Shown: positions 5,413 to 26,325 of the stretch, in pieces
Layout: each line of letters starts with the position of its first letter
Position numbering within the stretch: position 1 is the stretch's first letter
From: a virus
Taxonomy: Duplodnaviria > Heunggongvirae > Uroviricota > Caudoviricetes
Reading direction: 5' to 3' (one strand)
DNA: 29,878 nucleotides
Virus record (IMG/VR): IMGVR_UViG_2675903394_000003
Position numbers and translations under genes: made by a program
Notes under the pieces: generated by a model
What the model was told of the DNA's origin: nothing
The model's database searches: none
The model's input: the letters and a program-made list of their open reading frames with translations, nothing else

Positions 5413-6603
5413 TTAATTGCTGTTAACCGAGGTGACCAGATTTGCCAGGTATTTATCGGTGATACGCTGGCGCAGGGTCAGGTTTTCGAGAGGAGGCACC
5501 GGGGTATAGTCGTAGTCGATATACAGTTTTCCGGCCTTGAGGGTTTCCGCATCGTTGGATTCTTCGCTGAACCAGCAGGTCGCATCCACGATATAGCCGT
5601 TTGTTTTCAGCTCACGGAATTTGGCATTGATGCCGTCAACGATGTCGCGAATCAGCGTTGCGGTGATGGGCTTGTCCACCGCCCACATGTGCGCCTCAGC
5701 CATCGTGTCGGCCAGCACCTGCGCGGTGCGGGTGTAGTTTTCAAAGAGGAACAGCGGGTCATCAGAGCAGGTACGGTTACCCCAGAAGCGGAAACCGTCA
5801 CGGCGAATCAGCGTTGTGACGCCTGACTCGTTCAACAGGTCAGCATCGGTGTCGGACTCCTGCAAATCCCAGAATACGGACGCACTGATGCCGGTAACAC
5901 CGTTTACCCCGACGTTGGACAGCGTTTTATGCCAGCCCTGCTCCTGGTCGATTTTAGCGCGCAGACCCAGCGCACGGGCGGTGGCATACGCGGTGGCGGT
6001 GGTACTGGTGACCGTATCCCATGCGAGGAAATCCGGCCAGATGACCATCAGCTCACGCTGACTGAAATTCTGGCGATAGGCTTTCACCTCGGAAATGGTC
6101 TTACAGCCCCATGCGCTGATATATCCGAAAGCGCGCAGCTTCTGACAGACTGATGCCAGTGCAACAGCCACCTCTTTGGTATCCAGCCCCGGCACACCAA
6201 GAATACGCGGTTTAACACCGGTTACCGACTCCGCCGCCAGCAGGGCTTTCAGTCCGGTGTACTGACCGTTTTCGTCGGTGGTGCCGATGATATTGGAAAC
6301 GGTCTGCGCGAGTTTCGTTTCCTCGTCGTCGCCGGTGCCGTCTTCCACACGCACGACAACGGTGACCGGTTTTGACTGGTCGGCGATGGCCTGCAACGAT
6401 GCCGCCAGCGTGCCTTTTTTACCAGCCTTTGCAATTGCGCTCTGCACATTGGTAATCAGCACCGGTTTATTGAGGGGGAAGGTTTCCGCATCCGCATCGC
6501 TGGCTGTGCAGACCATGCCGACAATGGCCGTGGATACGGTGGAAATGACGCGGGTGCCGTCGTTAATCTCCAGCACCTGCACGCCGTGATGATAGTCACT
6601 CAT
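5413..6603 (-). CDS. FI: Contractile tail sheath protein FI, 396 aa
   Basis: Synteny and length as P2 FI; ATG confirmed. Confidence 0.93.
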   Translation of the reverse strand: MSDYHHGVQVLEINDGTRVISTVSTAIVGMVCTASDADAETFPLNKPVLITNVQSAIAKAGKKGTLAASLQAIADQSKPVTVVVRVEDGTGDDEETKLAQTVSNIIGTTDENGQYTGLKALLAAESVTGVKPRILGVPGLDTKEVAVALASVCQKLRAFGYISAWGCKTISEVKAYRQNFSQRELMVIWPDFLAWDTVTSTTATAYATARALGLRAKIDQEQGWHKTLSNVGVNGVTGISASVFWDLQESDTDADLLNESGVTTLIRRDGFRFWGNRTCSDDPLFLFENYTRTAQVLADTMAEAHMWAVDKPITATLIRDIVDGINAKFRELKTNGYIVDATCWFSEESNDAETLKAGKLYIDYDYTPVPPLENLTLRQRITDKYLANLVTSVNSN

Positions 6604-18051: not shown

Positions 18052-18224
18052 TGTCAGGAGTCCTGAATAGTGATTAGAGGAGTCACATGTCGGCATCAGT
18101 TTCCCGACGATGCGCATCCTCCGCCATCAGTCCCGGATGGCTTATCACTGACACAACAGCACCTTAGCGAATCGCGGGGCGCGACTCAGTAGCCTTGCCG
18201 TGTATTCATCACGGCGAGGTATTC
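18052..18224. promoter_or_regulatory. Divergent O/P intergenic region, expected location of late promoters
   Basis: Inference from P2 organisation only; no canonical TGT-N12-ACA activator site was found. Confidence 0.4.
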
Positions 18225-19997
18225 ATGACCATCACCACAGACACCACTCTTTTACACGACCCGCGTCGTCAGGCGGCGCTGCTGTACTGGCAGGGATTTT
18301 CCGTGCCGCAGATTGCCGCCATGTTGCAGATGAAACGCCCGACGGTGCAGAGCTGGAAACAGCGCGACGGCTGGGACAGCGTTGCCCCCATCAGCCGTGT
18401 CGAAATGAGCCTGGAAGCGCGGCTGACCCAGCTCATCATCAAACCGCAGAAAACCGGCGGTGACTTCAAGGAAATTGACCTGCTGGGACGCCAGATTGAA
18501 CGACTGGCACGGGTAAATCGCTACAGCCAGACCGGCAACGAGGCAGACCTTAATCCGAACGTCGCTAACCGCAACAAAGGCGGGCGGCGCAAACCGAAAA
18601 AGAATTTTTTCAGTGACGAAGCCATCGAAAAGCTGGAGCAGATTTTCTTTGAGCAGTCTTTCGACTATCAGTTGCACTGGTATCGCGCCGGGCTTGAGCA
18701 CCGCATCCGCGATATCCTGAAATCCCGCCAGATTGGCGCGACATTTTATTTTTCCCGCGAGGCGCTGCTGCGCGCCCTGAAAACCGGTCATAACCAGATT
18801 TTTCTGTCGGCCAGTAAAACGCAGGCGTATGTGTTCCGCGAATACATCATCGCCTTTGCCCGTCTGGTTGACGTTGACCTGACCGGTGACCCGATTGTCC
18901 TGGGCAATAACGGCGCAAAACTGATTTTTCTCGGCACCAACTCCAACACCGCGCAGAGCCATAACGGCGACCTGTACGTCGACGAGATTTTCTGGATCCC
19001 GAATTTTCAGGTACTGCGTAAGGTGGCATCAGGTATGGCCTCACAGAGTCACCTGCGTTCGACCTATTTCTCCACCCCGTCCACGCTGGCGCACGACGCC
19101 TACCCGTTCTGGTCGGGTGAACTGTATAACCGGGGACGCGCCAGCGCCGCCGAACGCGTGGAAATCGACGTCAGTCATAACGCCCTTGCCGGTGGGCTTC
19201 TCTGTGCGGACGGCCAGTGGCGACAGATTGTCACCATTGAGGACGCCCTGAAAGGTGGCTGCACGCTGTTCGACATTGAGCAGCTCAAACGCGAAAACAG
19301 CGCCGACGATTTTAAAAACCTGTTCATGTGTGAATTTGTTGACGACAAGGCGTCGGTGTTCCCGTTCGAGGAGCTGCAACGCTGCATGGTCGACACGCTG
19401 GAAGAATGGGAAGACTATGCACCCTTTGCCGCCAATCCGTTCGGCTCCCGCCCGGTATGGATTGGTTACGACCCGTCACACCGTGGCGACAGTGCCGGAT
19501 GCGTGGTGCTGGCACCGCCGGTGGTGGCCGGTGGCAAATTCAGAATACTTGAGCGTCACCAGTGGAAAGGCATGGACTTTGCCACTCAGGCGGAATCCAT
19601 CCGCAAACTCACCGAAAAATACAACGTCGAATACATCGGTATTGATGCCACTGGCCTCGGTGTCGGCGTGTTCCAGCTCGTGCGCTCGTTCTATCCCGCC
19701 GCGCGCGACATCCGCTACACGCCGGAAATGAAAACCGCAATGGTGCTCAAGGCAAAAGACGTTATCCGCCGAGGCTGTCTGGAATATGACGTCAGCGCCA
19801 CCGACATCACCAGCTCGTTTATGGCTATCCGCAAGACCATGACCAGCAGCGGACGCAGTGCCACCTATGAGGCCAGCCGCAGCGAGGAAGCCAGCCACGC
19901 CGACCTCGCCTGGGCGACCATGCATGCCCTGTTAAATGAGCCACTCACCGCCGGTATCAGCACCCCGCTGACATCCACCATTCTGGAGTTTTACTGA
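18225..19997 (+). CDS. P: Terminase ATPase (large) subunit P, 590 aa
   Basis: Start at ATG 18225 (MTITTDTTLLHDPRRQ) preceded by GAGGT; the track start at 18195 is a TTG; length as P2 gpP. Confidence 0.92.
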   Translation: MTITTDTTLLHDPRRQAALLYWQGFSVPQIAAMLQMKRPTVQSWKQRDGWDSVAPISRVEMSLEARLTQLIIKPQKTGGDFKEIDLLGRQIERLARVNRYSQTGNEADLNPNVANRNKGGRRKPKKNFFSDEAIEKLEQIFFEQSFDYQLHWYRAGLEHRIRDILKSRQIGATFYFSREALLRALKTGHNQIFLSASKTQAYVFREYIIAFARLVDVDLTGDPIVLGNNGAKLIFLGTNSNTAQSHNGDLYVDEIFWIPNFQVLRKVASGMASQSHLRSTYFSTPSTLAHDAYPFWSGELYNRGRASAAERVEIDVSHNALAGGLLCADGQWRQIVTIEDALKGGCTLFDIEQLKRENSADDFKNLFMCEFVDDKASVFPFEELQRCMVDTLEEWEDYAPFAANPFGSRPVWIGYDPSHRGDSAGCVVLAPPVVAGGKFRILERHQWKGMDFATQAESIRKLTEKYNVEYIGIDATGLGVGVFQLVRSFYPAARDIRYTPEMKTAMVLKAKDVIRRGCLEYDVSATDITSSFMAIRKTMTSSGRSATYEASRSEEASHADLAWATMHALLNEPLTAGISTPLTSTILEFY

Positions 19998-21031
19998 TGA
20001 GCAAGAAAAAAGGGAAAACACCGCAGCCAGCGGTGAAAACAATGACCGCCAGCGCCCCGAAAATGGAGGCATTCACCTTTGGTGAGCCGGTGCCGGTACT
20101 CGACCGCCGTGACATTCTGGATTACGTCGAGTGCATCAGTAACGGCAGATGGTATGAGCCACCGGTCAGCTTTACCGGTCTGGCAAAAAGCCTGCGTGCT
20201 GCCGTGCATCACAGCTCACCGATTTACGTCAAACGTAATATTCTGGCCTCAACATTTATCCCGCATCCGTGGCTTTCTCAGCAGGATTTCAGCCGCTTTG
20301 TGCTGGATTTTCTGGTGTTCGGTAATGCGTTTCTGGAAAAGCGTTACAGCACCACCGGTAAGGTCATCAGACTGGAAACCTCACCGGCAAAATATACCCG
20401 CCGTGGCGTGGAGGAGGATGTTTACTGGTGGGTGCCGTCCTTCAACGAGCCGACAGCCTTCGCGCCCGGCTCCGTGTTTCACCTGCTGGAGCCGGATATT
20501 AATCAGGAGCTGTACGGCCTGCCGGAATATCTCAGCGCCCTTAACTCTGCCTGGCTGAATGAGTCGGCCACGCTGTTCCGCCGCAAGTATTACGAAAACG
20601 GCGCTCATGCCGGATATATCATGTACGTCACCGATGCCGTGCAGGATCGCAACGATATCGAAATGCTTCGCGAAAACATGGTGAAGTCGAAAGGCCGCAA
20701 TAACTTTAAAAATCTGTTTCTCTATGCCCCACAGGGGAAAGCCGACGGCATTAAAATTATCCCCCTCAGTGAAGTGGCAACGAAGGACGATTTTTTTAAT
20801 ATCAAAAAAGCCAGTGCCGCTGACCTGCTGGACGCACACCGCATCCCTTTTCAGTTGATGGGCGGCAAGCCGGAGAACGTCGGGTCGTTGGGTGATATTG
20901 AGAAAGTGGCAAAGGTCTTTGTCCGCAATGAGCTTATCCCGTTACAGGACAGGATCCGCGAGATAAACGGCTGGCTCGGTCAGGAGGTCATCCGCTTTAA
21001 AAACTACTCACTGGACACTGACAACGGCTGA
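19997..21031 (+). CDS. Q: Portal (capsid vertex) protein Q, 344 aa
   Basis: ATGA overlap with the P stop; length as P2 gpQ. Confidence 0.93.
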   Translation: MSKKKGKTPQPAVKTMTASAPKMEAFTFGEPVPVLDRRDILDYVECISNGRWYEPPVSFTGLAKSLRAAVHHSSPIYVKRNILASTFIPHPWLSQQDFSRFVLDFLVFGNAFLEKRYSTTGKVIRLETSPAKYTRRGVEEDVYWWVPSFNEPTAFAPGSVFHLLEPDINQELYGLPEYLSALNSAWLNESATLFRRKYYENGAHAGYIMYVTDAVQDRNDIEMLRENMVKSKGRNNFKNLFLYAPQGKADGIKIIPLSEVATKDDFFNIKKASAADLLDAHRIPFQLMGGKPENVGSLGDIEKVAKVFVRNELIPLQDRIREINGWLGQEVIRFKNYSLDTDNG

Positions 21032-21200: not shown

Positions 21201-21219
21201 GTGCTTTCCCCGCCTCGCC
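21201..21219. other. cos: cos site (19-nt cohesive end, intact as expected in a prophage)
   Basis: GTGCTTTCCCCGCCTCGCC is the reverse complement of GGCGAGGCGGGGAAAGCAC, which I recall as the P2 cohesive end; it lies between Q and the accessory region as in P2. Confidence 0.8.
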
Positions 21220-21242
21220 CGCCCGCTTCATAGGGCGGTTTT
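21219..21242 (+). terminator. GC-rich hairpin with a short T-run next to cos
   Basis: CCGCCC-GCTTCATA-GGGCGG followed by TTTT; function uncertain. Confidence 0.3.
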
Positions 21243-21425
21243 AATGCAGTTGCACGAACAATCCAGATTCGCGCCAGCTCTGACAATATACTGTCAGAGC
21301 AAGCACGTCTGACGCATGCAAAAAAATGCATCTTTTGTATGCAATGCAGAAATCAAACAAATTTGAGTATAAATTAACGATGAGTCCTATGATTTTTAAC
21401 TTCATCCCTAGCAGTTAACAGCAAA

Positions 21426-22361
21426 TTAAAAGTCTTTATCTGCCTGATACTGCCCTGAACAGTAGTAACAACGATACTCAACATCACCATCATCCATTGG
21501 CCAAATGCTCATTTCGCTGCTGGGAGCCTGCGCACCACAACAATCGCAAGCAACATCAATATCATCACTATCTTCATTCTGACAAAAAGTGCATTTGTAA
21601 CCCGTAGAAGACTCATCAGAGGGAATCATTGTGTCGTTAGAACACTCAGGACATTCATAAACTTTCCAATCGACCAATTCATAAAATTTATGCCTAACCC
21701 CATAAAAAGCTTCAGCCTCTCTTTCTTCAACTTCTTTCTTGGCTTCAGAGAGCCGATGAGAGTATTCATCAGCTAAAGTTTGAAATATCTGTAAGTTATC
21801 TGCACCGACTTCATCTTCAAGATTAAAAAGATCGAAGATATCAATAAACTCAGCTACCCCCCGGACGAGGCGTCCAATACACAAGCGCGCGTCTTTAGGA
21901 GTAAGTCTGAATTGATAATGCTCAATATCATTTCTTAAATTCTTTATCCAAGCTATATCATTACAAAAATCAATATCTACAAAATCAACCCCAGTTATGC
22001 CGCATTTCTCACACTTAGCAAAGTTTAGTGCCTGATCTAAGGTTATCGTATATGGCTTAGATTTCCCTTCAATGAACCTTCCTAAATCAACGCCATCCTC
22101 GATAATTTTATTATATGCGTCTAAAAGACTGATTGATTCTTGCTTTGCTCTTGTAGCTATTTGTTTATAGCAATCGGAATACAGTAAATTTTCATCTACT
22201 GTAACAATATATAACTTCAACACCAGCTCAAGAAAATGTGACAAATGCAAGATAGCAAATTTATATTGCCGCAATTCTCCTCTCTGCCCTAACTCATACT
22301 TCGCTAAAGCTTCATTAAAACTATCAATAGCATTCTCTTGTAAATCCAGTTGATATTCCAT
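21426..22361 (-). CDS. Hypothetical cysteine-rich protein (311 aa from the preferred start) with an R-x4-H HEPN-like motif and C-terminal CxxC pairs; candidate defence-associated protein
   Basis: Long ORF in AT-rich cargo; preferred start is the ATG at 22359-22361, preceded by AGGTGA, while the track start at 22406 has no RBS; motif LRNDIEHY at nt 21918-21935; CPEC...CTFC and CDCC...CYYC at nt 21459-21653. Confidence 0.7.
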   Translation of the reverse strand: MEYQLDLQENAIDSFNEALAKYELGQRGELRQYKFAILHLSHFLELVLKLYIVTVDENLLYSDCYKQIATRAKQESISLLDAYNKIIEDGVDLGRFIEGKSKPYTITLDQALNFAKCEKCGITGVDFVDIDFCNDIAWIKNLRNDIEHYQFRLTPKDARLCIGRLVRGVAEFIDIFDLFNLEDEVGADNLQIFQTLADEYSHRLSEAKKEVEEREAEAFYGVRHKFYELVDWKVYECPECSNDTMIPSDESSTGYKCTFCQNEDSDDIDVACDCCGAQAPSSEMSIWPMDDGDVEYRCYYCSGQYQADKDF

Positions 22362-22426
22362 TACATCACCTAAAAAATTCATATTTATATGAGTGCAGAA
22401 AACCATTCAGCACTCATTGCTTATAA

Positions 22427-23158
22427 TCAATTATCTAATATTGATACAACCTCTCCCGTTCGTATGTCGACGCGCGCAGCTATAGTCTGCTTAACCACTC
22501 CACCATAAGCATTAGTACCGCGAAACGTAGTTTTCACAATAGCGTACGGGTCTTTATTCAAAACCAAATGATATACCGTTGACACATGTTTATAAGATGA
22601 ATCATCGTTCATATTATCTTTAATTAGTTTTTCCAATGGACGATAAGAACCATCCCAACCACTAAAATTACTCTGAAATGTATCAAGATTGATTTTATTG
22701 TTTAGTGAATTCGGGTCATTTTCATAATCATTAAAGCACCACCCAAGAACATCACCGAGTTTCAACTCATCATCTTTGGTAAATGTATACTCACTCATGC
22801 AGGCATAAAACGCATCTGACGCGGTGGCTGGAACTTCCTTAAAATCAATGTAACTATTCACAATATCGTGTCGTGTTTTCTTTGACTCGTTCCGATATTC
22901 CTTGAGTGTTTTTTCACCATATTCGAATGTTTTTTGGACTTTGTGTTCTGCAACGGTTGATGTTTCAGTTTTAGCAACTGGCTGGCTTTTTTCTGTTGGA
23001 TAGAGTATTGAACCAATTATGCTCAATACAAAACCTCCTCCGAGATAAACCGCACTTGCACGTTTGCGGTTTGGCATTCGCACCAGTGATGGCTTGATTA
23101 ACCCGATGAAGAAAGCAACGAAAAAAGCGAGTGATAGAAAAGCGATTATAGTATCCAT
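22427..23158 (-). CDS. Hypothetical membrane protein (243 aa from the preferred start) with two N-terminal TM helices and a ~180-aa C-terminal domain
   Basis: Hydrophobic segments IIAFLSLAFFVAFFIGLI and AVYLGGGFVLSIIGSILY separated by the basic loop KPSLVRMPNRKRAS; preferred start is the ATG at 23156-23158, preceded by AAGGA; AT-rich. Confidence 0.7.
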   Translation of the reverse strand: MDTIIAFLSLAFFVAFFIGLIKPSLVRMPNRKRASAVYLGGGFVLSIIGSILYPTEKSQPVAKTETSTVAEHKVQKTFEYGEKTLKEYRNESKKTRHDIVNSYIDFKEVPATASDAFYACMSEYTFTKDDELKLGDVLGWCFNDYENDPNSLNNKINLDTFQSNFSGWDGSYRPLEKLIKDNMNDDSSYKHVSTVYHLVLNKDPYAIVKTTFRGTNAYGGVVKQTIAARVDIRTGEVVSILDN

Positions 23159-23381
23159 AGCTATCCTTTTTGCATCATCCACATAAAAAATCGACCTCAT
23201 GTTAGCAACAGGATGCTTACTTTTGAATATTTGTAAGTTGTTGGCTCTCCAACCTAACTCCTTTCAACCGTCAAAAACCGGCACCAACGCAGTAAAAATA
23301 TGTCTGTCAACTAACGCCTCGCTTCGCTCGTTGTTCAACCCCGCCAGCCCTGAAAACAAGTTTCACGACTGGCGGCGTTCT

Positions 23382-23588
23382 CTATCGTCTGCGTGGTGGT
23401 GGCGTAACTCTTGATTGACCGATATGATTAAACCGCCCGTAATTATCCCGGACTATTTCGGCACACCCGACCAGCTCATCGGGCGTCATATTTTCGTTGA
23501 CCATAATCCGCTGTAAACGCTGAACAATAGCCATCAGCTTGATATTTTTAGTTTTATGGTGCGGTATCTCGCCTGGTATTCTGTGCAT
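23382..23588 (-). CDS. Hypothetical small protein (68 aa)
   Basis: ATG at 23586-23588 overlaps the upstream stop as TAATG (translational coupling); the track ORF start at 23600 is a GTG. Confidence 0.45.
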   Translation of the reverse strand: MHRIPGEIPHHKTKNIKLMAIVQRLQRIMVNENMTPDELVGCAEIVRDNYGRFNHIGQSRVTPPPRRR

Positions 23589-24043
23589 TATCCAAGCCAC
23601 CCGTTTTGCTGTGCACGCTCCATCTGTTCATCTGAATAGTTCCATGCTCCATCCGTGGCAACCATTGCCCCGCCAGACATCCCCGTCTCTGGTTCATACA
23701 TAACAGCAAGGCCGAGCTGATGCATAATTTCATGATTAATTCTGAATACCAGACCACGCTCACTAAGTTCTTTCCAGTTCACAATCTCATATGCGCCTGT
23801 ATTAAGCAGCTCAATACTTAGCAAGACATAATCTTCCAGCCAGTCTGACAGGTCAGTAACATCTGTTATCCGGGCTTCAACCTTTCGCCCCGTATACACA
23901 CCCTGCACCCATTCATGCAAAATCAACGTGTCCCCGTGCTCATAATTACGGTCATTTTTCCGAAACTCTGCGCGTTTCTTTCCTTCCAGCACAAGGTCGA
24001 AATATTTTGCGTGCAGCTTTACCTCGTGAATTTTTGCCATCAT
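23588..24043 (-). CDS. ASCH/DUF3850-like (PUA-fold) protein, about 151 aa
   Basis: N-terminal MAKIHEVKLHAKYFDLVLEGKKRAEFRKNDRNYEHGDTLILHEW resembles the DUF3850/ASCH signature as I remember it; ATG at 24041-24043 overlaps the A stop and is preceded by GGAG. Confidence 0.6.
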   Translation of the reverse strand: MMAKIHEVKLHAKYFDLVLEGKKRAEFRKNDRNYEHGDTLILHEWVQGVYTGRKVEARITDVTDLSDWLEDYVLLSIELLNTGAYEIVNWKELSERGLVFRINHEIMHQLGLAVMYEPETGMSGGAMVATDGAWNYSDEQMERAQQNGWLG

Positions 24044-26325
24044 CTCCACTCCATTACTGTTGAGAATCCCGGCCACTCATCAGCGACCGGATACGTGAAT
24101 TTTTTCCCGTCATAATTTACAGTCGCGCCACGCGCCAGCGCCTCAAGCTCCCATCGCTGCGGCCTGATACCGTTCTGAGCAAGGTCAACGCGGATACGGG
24201 TAATTTGCATTCGTTCCGACCGGGTCAGTCTGGCCGATGGCGCTATTTCATGCGGTTTTAACGGGCTTCCGGCTCTTTGCTGACGATTTGGTGTTCTCAG
24301 GCCGTGTTTTAATGCGCCCCTGAGCGCCCTCACGACCTCCGGGTCATTCCATTCGATAACACCGTCATCAACCAGATTAAGCACTGCTGCGGCGTGTTCA
24401 GAAGGTGTGGGAGCCGGTAACGAAGCATCACTGCTGGCAGGCTTTCCACAGTTATTGACAGGACTCCGAGGCGCGGCGATGCCGCTTTTTAAAGTCAAAG
24501 GCTCCACGACCGGAACTTTCGGCACAATGCGCCAGTCCGTCGTTCTGGTGATATGAATATGACGCGCGCCGAGATGCGGCGCGTAAATGCCGACCACTCT
24601 CTCGACCTCTTCCTCGTACTCGTTAACGTCATCCGACGGGCTACGGGCGACCCTGACAGTCTGACAATCGCGCGGGACATTTGCCCCACCCTGCGCGCTG
24701 ATATACAACGCAAAATCACCACTGTCTGCGGCGGCGCGTGCAGCCTCGACGCGCTCGTCAAACTCATCAGCAATGCTGACGCCGCGCGGCAATTTGCGTA
24801 GTTCACGGTAAGCCCCCATTGTCGGCAGACCAACCGTTTTAAATTGCGGGATGCGCCACGTTGACGCCCATGCAGTAACAGCCGCGGCAGTATCTTTCAG
24901 CGGTCTGCCGGTATCGTTATCGAGCTGACCATCCAGTGCATAGCCGTCGATGTTTTTTGAGATGTATTTCGCGATATACCCCGCAGCACCACCCCGATTA
25001 AGGTGTTTTGCCTGAAAACGGTTTCGCGCGGCTCCTCTTTCGTCGCCATCCTCTTTGAGCGCATAGCGACGCATGATTTCGATAATCTGGTTACGCTGGC
25101 GTGGATTACAAAAAAGCATCATATGCCAGTGCGGCGTTCCGTCGTGGTGTGGCTCGACGACTCGCAAACCGTAGACCTGTAAATCATTATCCTTGAATGC
25201 CGTGCGCATCAGGCTCCAGATACGGCAGAGATATCGCTGCGCATCCTTTGGATTAAATGCCTCATCATTCCAGCCGTGATTAAGCTGGACGGTTTTACTT
25301 TCGCCTTTTCCGACCTGACGTGTCGGGTGATACTTTGACGGTGCGGTCAGCGTGATAAACATCCCCACATCACCCTCTGCGGCGGCGTAACGCTCAATAC
25401 CGGCGATGGTGTTCATCAGCTCCATCCGGCGAATTTCAGGATTAGAAATACTGCCCATCACCTTACTGATAAGGTCGATGCGCTCGCCGGTTTCCCTGTT
25501 TTCAAGGTCACACGATTTAAGAAATTCCAGATTTGCCTGGCGGCGTGCACGCACATCCCGAATGGCATGTTTACTGGCATAAGGAGAACGGTCTTTATTG
25601 ACCTCCCCGACAGCTATCAGTAACGCCTCATGCCAGCGCATACGCTGGCCTTTAAGCTGATGAGTCCACCACTCATCGTTAAACAGGCGGGCAATGGCAG
25701 AATATGCCTGCCTCGTGGTCATCTGTCCTTTACGGTATTTTTTCCAGTAGAGAGGGGAAATATTGAAAGCACGTGCAGCGCCAGCAACATGACCATAGAG
25801 GTGAGCCTGCGCCTCATCCGTAAACAGCGATTCTTTCTCGCCATGCGCATCCACCCAGGCATCGCAGAGTTCCTCATACATCATGAAAAGCTGCGATGAA
25901 ATACGGGCGGCAAACTTTTTCAGCTCCTTGTCATTCATTCCAGGCAGGCGCGCATAGTGGTCGCGCTCTGCCAGAAACAGCAACGACGCGTCGGTGTTCA
26001 TTTCATGGCGCTGATTCACGCGCTCAATGCGCGGCCATAAACGACGCTGAAAAGTGGATGTGAGGAAATAAAACCCGTGCACCGGGCTTTTATTGCGCCG
26101 GATGTAGTCATAGCGTGAAGTAAACAGCGAGCGCAAAAAGTAAGGCAGGCGGTTAATCGTGGATAAAACACCTTGCACCTGACGCATCTCGTCACGTGTA
26201 AGGGGTCTTTCGCGCCCGACAGCCTCGCGTGGCGCGTTCCATGCATAAGCACCGGTAAACATCTTACCGGTGCCTGCGGCAAATGCTGACGGAGGGACAA
26301 AACGCCCGGAGGCTTTAACGGCCAT
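24040..26325 (-). CDS. A: Replication initiation protein A (rolling-circle nickase), 761 aa
   Basis: Start at MAVKASGRFVPP (ATG 26323-26325) gives the P2 gpA length; the track start at 26367 is a TTG. Confidence 0.92.
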   Translation of the reverse strand: MAVKASGRFVPPSAFAAGTGKMFTGAYAWNAPREAVGRERPLTRDEMRQVQGVLSTINRLPYFLRSLFTSRYDYIRRNKSPVHGFYFLTSTFQRRLWPRIERVNQRHEMNTDASLLFLAERDHYARLPGMNDKELKKFAARISSQLFMMYEELCDAWVDAHGEKESLFTDEAQAHLYGHVAGAARAFNISPLYWKKYRKGQMTTRQAYSAIARLFNDEWWTHQLKGQRMRWHEALLIAVGEVNKDRSPYASKHAIRDVRARRQANLEFLKSCDLENRETGERIDLISKVMGSISNPEIRRMELMNTIAGIERYAAAEGDVGMFITLTAPSKYHPTRQVGKGESKTVQLNHGWNDEAFNPKDAQRYLCRIWSLMRTAFKDNDLQVYGLRVVEPHHDGTPHWHMMLFCNPRQRNQIIEIMRRYALKEDGDERGAARNRFQAKHLNRGGAAGYIAKYISKNIDGYALDGQLDNDTGRPLKDTAAAVTAWASTWRIPQFKTVGLPTMGAYRELRKLPRGVSIADEFDERVEAARAAADSGDFALYISAQGGANVPRDCQTVRVARSPSDDVNEYEEEVERVVGIYAPHLGARHIHITRTTDWRIVPKVPVVEPLTLKSGIAAPRSPVNNCGKPASSDASLPAPTPSEHAAAVLNLVDDGVIEWNDPEVVRALRGALKHGLRTPNRQQRAGSPLKPHEIAPSARLTRSERMQITRIRVDLAQNGIRPQRWELEALARGATVNYDGKKFTYPVADEWPGFSTVMEWR

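Follow-up and report, generated by a model that had tools for sequence, protein, structure and literature searches.

The 29,878-nt stretch of DNA analyzed here and hereafter called the window (IMG/VR virus record IMGVR_UViG_2675903394_000003; Caudoviricetes) is a near-complete P2-like prophage, which carries two accessory genes on its minus strand between the replication endonuclease gene A and the cohesive-end (cos) site. One of them encodes a 243-aa membrane protein orthologous to Orf97 of coliphage 186, and the other a 311-aa cysteine-rich protein that is a candidate HEPN ribonuclease (RNase) (Table 1). After gene A, the minus strand contains, in this order, a DUF3850/ASCH gene, a 68-aa open reading frame (ORF), the 243-aa ORF, and the 311-aa ORF, and the series ends at a 19-mer that we take to be the P2 cohesive end. 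The initial annotation of this DNA had described the pair as AT-rich cargo, separated by 65 nt and set among conserved P2 backbone genes, and all of this holds. Both ORFs are present, the gap measures 65 nt, the GC content is 0.354–0.390 over positions 21,501–23,000 compared with 0.52–0.58 in the flanks, and the terminase, portal, DUF3850/ASCH, and A genes are all recognizable. The RefSeq annotation of the only near-identical Escherichia coli genome (GN04171) gives identical starts and stops for the 311-aa and 243-aa products, and Shine–Dalgarno-like sequences precede both starts (AGGTGA ahead of 22,361 and AAGGA ahead of 23,158). Longer versions starting at 22,406 and 23,200 were discarded, since the homologues begin with MEYQ and MDT and RefSeq takes the shorter starts.

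Table 1. Features of the cos-proximal region of the window, its backbone flanks, and related elements at other loci (locus coordinates refer to the fetched stretches).
Feature	Position	Strand	Remarks
HEPN RNase candidate, 311 aa	21426..22361	-	Motif conservation and PADLOC PDC-S64 match
orf97 orthologue, 243 aa	22427..23158	-	77.4% identity to 186 Orf97, full length
Variable insert, codons 57-128 of the HEPN protein	21978..22193	-	Candidate specificity determinant between HEPN helices 2 and 3
Conserved hairpin, orf97 stop to HEPN ribosome-binding site	22389..22417	-	RNAalifold, covariation
70-nt boundary element	23311..23380	.	Conserved; contains GCCGCCAG/CTGGCGG inverted repeat
cos 19-mer	21201..21219	-	Right limit of the cargo region; single exact match, 0 expected by chance
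Terminase gene	18195-19997		P2 backbone flank
Portal gene Q	19997-21031		P2 backbone flank; divergent orientation, beyond the cos 19-mer
68-aa ORF	23382-23588	-	phrog_11386, function-unknown family
DUF3850/ASCH gene	23588-24040	-	P2 backbone flank, downstream of gene A; DUF3850/ASCH + DUF7415 protein
Replication endonuclease gene A	24040-26325		P2 backbone flank
54-aa ORF	21241-21405	-	Probably spurious
70-nt element copy	L102 5747-5815
70-nt element copy	L111 5748-5815
70-nt element copy	L122 5741-5809
70-nt element copy	L188 (phage 186 record 30344-30412)
Membrane-protein ORFs ahead of HEPN relatives	L178 4538-4942; L179 4540-4944; L006 5482-5889; L007 958-1287; L087 4303-4998		Unrelated to one another; same strand as the HEPN gene

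The initial annotation had also regarded the region as a cargo hotspot of P2-like phages, in agreement with published work in which the cos-proximal hotspot is already described (Rousset 2022, PMC9122126; Vassallo 2022). The exact locus, defined by WP_004099442, WP_004099447, and WP_004099450, appears in Table S5A of Rousset 2022 (PMC9122126), where both WP_004099447 and WP_004099450 are listed as ‘hypothetical’ and are not among the tested systems. The ‘Putative HEPN’ that was tested in that study (P2 construct pFR103, E. coli S88) is a different gene at a different locus. The window genes share with old, tin, and AbiP2 the cos-proximal slot between A and Q, in which independent cargo genes are stacked. 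However, neither window protein has any sequence or domain relationship to Old, Tin, or AbiP2, as had been suspected for the first two.

The membrane protein had been considered unassignable to a named defense family, but it is the orthologue of phage 186 Orf97. A tblastn search of phage records aligned both proteins over residues 1–243 with 77.4% identity (E 3e-118). They have the same length, are encoded between gene A and cos in both phages, and belong to one family found across the P2/186-like prophages of Enterobacterales, to which it is limited and in which a length of about 243 aa is kept throughout. The GenBank record of 186 (U32222.1, AAC34191.1) carries the note “expression from plasmid blocks 186 infection”; the gene is named, and an exclusion phenotype has been reported for it. 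Two transmembrane helices, the number given in the initial annotation, are predicted at the N-terminus (residues 2–21 and 31–52); these helices, the basic loop RMPNRKR between them, and a C-terminal domain with two cysteines (C120 and C141) are invariant in the family, and the linker that precedes the C-terminal domain is disordered and variable. Scans of the protein against Pfam, NCBIfam, and PADLOC gave nothing above noise, PHROGs returned only function-unknown families, and a Foldseek comparison of its AlphaFold2 model, which has a predicted local distance difference test (pLDDT) score of 82.8, with BFVD retrieved only uncharacterized proteins. A sequence-profile search against the PDB yielded nothing useful for Orf97 or for the HEPN protein.

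The genomic distribution of orf97 was followed in 80 IMG/VR loci, and in all of them the gene is found between gene A and the portal gene; within the fetched stretch, the portal gene was found downstream in 77 of these loci and gene A upstream in 76. Between orf97 and the portal gene there are about 490 to 2800 nt, and the cargo of the slot downstream of orf97 is variable across P2-like prophages, as the initial annotation had anticipated for the locus. In about 12 of the 80 loci the slot is empty, with some 500 nt to the portal gene, as it is in 186, and the other loci carry at least ten unrelated cargo families. Among them are AbiP2 (E 5.6e-162), a single-gene system that at locus L152 sits in this very slot on the opposite strand, a DUF262 protein similar to NsnA/PD-T4-2_A, and PDC-S31. 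The HEPN gene is present in only nine of the 80. Moreover, megablast homology between the window and other E. coli prophages ends at the orf97 stop codon (22,426–22,440), and whereas 261 of the 5426 complete E. coli genomes examined (approximately 5%) contain the orf97 segment (22,426–23,380), only one contains the complete two-gene stretch. Each HEPN-linked Orf97 has a nearer relative (92.6–97.9% identity) among the Orf97 proteins with other cargo or none, and the HEPN-linked Orf97 proteins of the two phage backbones in which they occur, P2-type and 186-type, are only 77–78% identical to each other; thus, Orf97 tracks the phage backbone and not its partner. The two commonest cargoes after orf97 are a protein of about 215 aa with N-terminal membrane helices (family F0, 20 loci; L160 ~5816–6475) and one of 260 aa that is anchored in the membrane at its C-terminus (family F2, 18 loci; L114 ~1543–2343); they match no PADLOC model and look unstudied.

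The cysteine-rich protein, likewise left without a named defense family in the initial annotation, can be placed as a HEPN protein matching the PADLOC candidate family PDC-S64. It comprises helices at about residues 7–55 and 130–175, an insert at 57–128, a long helix at 187–219, and two Cys4 zinc ribbons at about 235–301 (AlphaFold2 model, pLDDT 89.6). An alignment of 33 sequences was used, consisting of the window protein and 32 relatives of 30–83% identity from Enterobacter, Klebsiella, Pectobacterium, Pseudomonas, Aeromonas, Vibrio, Acinetobacter, and others. In this alignment, the R-x4-H motif recognized earlier takes the form LRNxIEH, with N144, E147, and H148 invariant and R143 at least 90% conserved. 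Both E45 and K49 of an E45xxxK49 motif are invariant as well, and the CxxC pairs, also recognized earlier, are kept throughout, with seven invariant cysteines in the C-terminal region. The HEPN superfamily has been defined by an Rx4-6H motif with a polar residue after the R and by an upstream acidic residue in an Ex3[KR] motif (PMC3710099). The window protein displays both, as L-R143-N144-D-I-E-H148 and E45-L-V-L-K49, in an alpha-helical bundle that resembles solved HEPN domains.

The PDC-S64 profile matches the window protein with E 1.6e-17 (61.5 bits) and all 33 aligned sequences (best 1.2e-29). The best-matched stretch of the window protein is limited to residues 4–87, which makes it a divergent long form with the 57–128 insert; this insert is largely absent from relatives of 270–280 aa. 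The name PDC-S64 was not found in the text of the literature searched. Pfam DUF3644 (PF12358) is matched by 11 of the 33 sequences (best E 1.5e-6), and shorter relatives carry a precomputed hit to it. The window protein has no PF12358 match and appears to border DUF3644. Anantharaman et al. 2013 (PMC3710099) equate DUF3644 with the EC042_2821 HEPN family, in which zinc-ribbon fusions and an association with restriction-modification operons are described. The window protein resembles that family in its conserved Rx4-6H motif and through its 11 DUF3644-matching relatives, but differs from it in the missing PF12358 match and in having neither a winged helix-turn-helix domain nor a restriction-endonuclease domain.

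Away from P2/186-like phages, the HEPN gene does not travel with orf97. No orf97 lies within 5–6 kb of the relatives of 30–67% identity in 80 species-representative genome loci and 10 viral contigs, nor does any lie beside the more distant relatives (0 of 95 loci). The upstream and downstream ORFs are heterogeneous across these 95 loci, and a conserved partner was searched for in the relatives' loci and none was found; the commonest neighbor family accompanies only eight of the 80 genome loci, so that the gene has no conserved neighbor there, which agrees with the single-gene organization of PDC-S64. Some loci contain defense-type neighbors, such as HsdR, a KAP NTPase, a DUF1156-type methylase with a helicase, or an AAA+RloB pair, and a reverse transcriptase is also found among the neighbors. 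Two relatives of about 70% identity lie in an integrative and conjugative element (ICE) of Klebsiella and beside an integrase in E. coli. The lack of orf97 and of any conserved neighbor, together with the defense-type genes nearby, is the pattern expected of a stand-alone defense-island gene. A relative of 52% identity was also observed in a viral contig (L180 1895–5915), near an RVT_1 reverse transcriptase (413 aa) and a tail-fiber gene; this may represent another accessory site, in a P2-like phage of a different genus.

Taken together, these observations favor, with a probability of about 0.6, a stack of two accessory genes, each independent of the other, at the cos-proximal hotspot over a single system. 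A dedicated two-gene system would keep its genes together wherever either is found, and the nine of 80 orf97 loci and none of 95 distant HEPN loci in which they meet show no such pattern. Therefore, the apparent two-gene system is most likely an artifact of adjacency. Orf97 is an already named gene and the HEPN protein is a member of a catalogued, unvalidated candidate family. The initial annotation had favored a previously undescribed defense or superinfection-exclusion system; defense or exclusion remains the best reading for each gene, but a coupled pair is unsupported, given that Orf97 occurs alone or with other partners and that HEPN relatives occur without orf97.

Several observations weigh against this reading. 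In all HEPN relatives of at least 80% identity (eight viral contigs and an Enterobacter genome) orf97 lies directly upstream, with co-occurrence restricted to this range and to P2/186-like phages, and the orf97–HEPN block is colinear between P2-type and 186-type backbones, with a nucleotide identity of about 75%. The stretch from the orf97 stop codon to the HEPN ribosome-binding site contains a conserved hairpin, for which RNAalifold predicts 13 pairs, six of them with compensatory changes, across seven loci of about 75% nucleotide identity. As no T-run follows it, the hairpin is not a canonical intrinsic terminator; it might act as an attenuator, a processing site, or a 5' stabilizer. A promoter and terminator scan of both genes gave no convincing site, and promoter-like matches numbered 10 compared with 6.8 ± 2.9 in shuffled sequence, which leaves neither gene with a convincing promoter. 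The window protein reaches no Pfam HEPN model, and RNase activity, defense role, and topology are all inferred for the two window proteins. Furthermore, about seven independent closer HEPN relatives were found outside P2/186 phages, and four of them have an unrelated small membrane protein upstream, which could hint at analogous partners.

These membrane proteins, encoded on the same strand as the HEPN gene (Table 1), are 134 aa long with two or three predicted helices at L178 and L179, C-terminally anchored at L006 and L007, and DtrJ-like in the Klebsiella ICE. The 134-aa ORF was rejected as a conserved partner, since it is common only to those two related loci. Across the 95 HEPN-relative loci, a hydrophobic upstream ORF is found in only 22, which is close to chance level by our rough estimate of membrane-protein frequency, made with no measured control, and the cases at closer relatives are too few to separate from chance.

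A coupled system, in which Orf97 in the inner membrane would detect or gate incoming phage DNA and license or restrain a cytoplasmic HEPN RNase, is one alternative, and it would account for the arrangement on one strand with a 65-nt gap that contains a good ribosome-binding site and lacks a canonical terminator, as well as for the maintained adjacency, the covarying hairpin, and the membrane proteins ahead of several closer relatives elsewhere. It is, however, unlikely, because orf97 stands alone in 186 and in about 12 of the 80 loci and is followed elsewhere by at least ten other cargoes, because the 95 HEPN-relative loci do without it, and because Orf97 and its HEPN partner do not co-diversify; in addition, the predicted cytoplasmic parts of Orf97 are limited to the ends of its helices and a loop about 10 residues long. 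A related version, in which Orf97 would detect or gate DNA at the inner membrane with the HEPN RNase as a back-up killer or, more generally, the HEPN clade would use interchangeable small membrane partners, seems improbable as well. Under the preferred reading of two independent genes, the adjacency is taken to reflect common ancestry, in that a cassette would have inserted downstream of orf97 and then spread by recombination between orf97 and cos, although some of the orf97–HEPN linkage remains unexplained.

As an independent gene, Orf97 would be anchored in the inner membrane by its two helices, with the RMPNRKR loop facing the cytoplasm according to the positive-inside rule and the C-terminal domain, which has an HdeA-like helical part, then facing the periplasm. 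It most likely functions as a superinfection-exclusion factor at the envelope against P2/186-type phages, a role carried over by homology from the phenotype reported for 186 Orf97.

In phage 186, the final gene before cos is orf97, which the record places after tum in the LexA-controlled p95 operon and between two terminators, t95a (partial) and t95b; this SOS-dependent transcription unit ends at t95b. The tum–orf97 SOS operon is credited to Brumby et al. 1996 by Owen et al. 2017 (PMC5322425). In contrast, orf97 of the window is preceded by the DUF3850/ASCH gene and a short ORF and has another cargo gene after it. The 222-nt intergenic region upstream of it contains no CTGT-N8-ACAG LexA site, the nearest LexA-like match (one mismatch, 23,624–23,639) lies within the ASCH gene, and SOS/LexA control of the window orf97 was consequently rejected, with no tum and no LexA box nearby. 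The operon of 186 also bears on the possibility that the HEPN protein serves the phage's own cycle, for instance as a nuclease for host-RNA shut-off or processing that is expressed on induction. In 186-type relatives, the HEPN gene does lie downstream of the LexA-controlled p95–tum–orf97 operon, where its cassette replaces the terminator region and a DinI/Tum-like gene lies upstream. Nevertheless, such a role appears doubtful, since the gene is rare and patchy (one of 5426 E. coli genomes, and no relatives among the 50,697 phage records of INPHARED), most relatives are chromosomal, some of them beside restriction or other defense-type genes, and the window lacks both tum and a LexA box near orf97.

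The HEPN protein is better regarded as a putative stand-alone RNase, a role suggested by its motif and fold, which would most likely mediate abortive infection and be inactive in uninfected cells. The closest studied analogue and the best available working model for its activation is RAZR/PD-T7-4 (Zhang et al. 2026, PMC13017515), a single protein with a zinc finger and a HEPN domain that is non-toxic alone. Binding to rings formed by phage proteins activates RAZR, upon which it cleaves RNA non-specifically, and specificity is set by the zinc-finger domain, which is variable. Both proteins combine a zinc module (Cys4 zinc ribbons in the window protein) with a HEPN RNase in one polypeptide, both are carried by E. 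coli mobile elements, and in both a variable region is a plausible specificity determinant. However, RAZR has an N-terminal zinc finger followed by a C-terminal DUF4145 HEPN domain, whereas in the window protein the HEPN domain comes first and the zinc ribbons after it. Membership of the RAZR family was rejected on this reversed domain order and because no hit to the DUF4145 or PD-T7-4 profile was obtained with any of the 33 aligned sequences, the window protein included. The two also differ in where they vary. In the window family, the insert inside the HEPN domain is the most variable part (mean pairwise identity 0.36, compared with 0.58 in the HEPN core), followed by the second zinc ribbon (0.44), and the first zinc ribbon is conserved like the core; between the window protein and its 83% relative, the insert is 56% identical and the core and first ribbon 92–97%. 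This concentration of variability leads to the proposal that the insert, and perhaps the second ribbon, bind the phage trigger. By analogy with RAZR/PD-T7-4, a phage-made product would bind these variable surfaces and thereby rearrange the HEPN active sites within a dimer or oligomer, and the activated protein would cut RNA and bring translation to a stop. The first zinc ribbon could have a structural or RNA-binding role.

HEPN domains are also common as toxins of toxin–antitoxin pairs (PMC3710099), and the cargo of the hotspot is not always defensive, since partition systems and a cytolethal distending toxin are found there too (Rousset 2022, PMC9122126). The HEPN protein could accordingly lack any anti-phage role, being either an addiction or selfish module of the toxin type or a remnant that is no longer active, in a hotspot that merely tolerates insertions. 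This has little likelihood, as no conserved antitoxin-sized gene adjoins the HEPN gene, and the invariance of catalytic and zinc-binding residues among sequences of 30–83% identity points to purifying selection on an active enzyme.

The anatomy of the region is consistent with a cassette inserted into a slot. Positions 21,221–21,343 are homologous to the right end of phage 186, and the HEPN cassette proper (approximately 21,344–22,426) occupies the variable slot after orf97, at a position where 186 has only a 70-nt element and the terminator t95b. This 70-nt element is common to a record named Peduovirus P2, to Wphi, to Yersinia P2-like phages, and to 186-type phages. In the window it is located upstream of orf97. 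It comes directly after orf97 in 186, L102, L111, L113, L122, and L127, it flanks orf97 on both sides in L102 and L111, and it forms the left cargo edge in the P2-named record, in which a methylase is the cargo. It looks like a cassette boundary that acts as a recombination anchor of the hotspot.

Around the two genes, the DUF3850/ASCH gene and the 68-aa ORF accompany orf97 in E. coli P2-type prophages, and 186-type relatives have a DinI/Tum-like gene and a 60-aa ORF (L086) in place of this pair. On the other side, a 54-aa ORF starts 20 nt past the HEPN stop codon and enters the cos-proximal region, which is non-coding in phage 186; it is probably spurious, and the RefSeq twin genome has no annotation there.

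The locus illustrates that adjacency alone is no basis for calling two genes a ‘system’, and applying this caution would leave fewer false systems. orf97 is better seen as the semi-resident first gene of the P2/186 hotspot, with the truly variable slot downstream of it, a distinction that aids the parsing of such loci. PDC-S64 offers a compact single-protein HEPN candidate for testing, with conserved catalytic residues and a variable insert, and a useful comparison to RAZR, in which the domain order is the opposite. Orf97, for its part, carries a decades-old exclusion note, is present in about 5% of complete E. coli genomes, and appears to have gone unstudied since; it now has a structural hypothesis, namely that of an HdeA-like domain that would face the periplasm on a two-helix membrane anchor.

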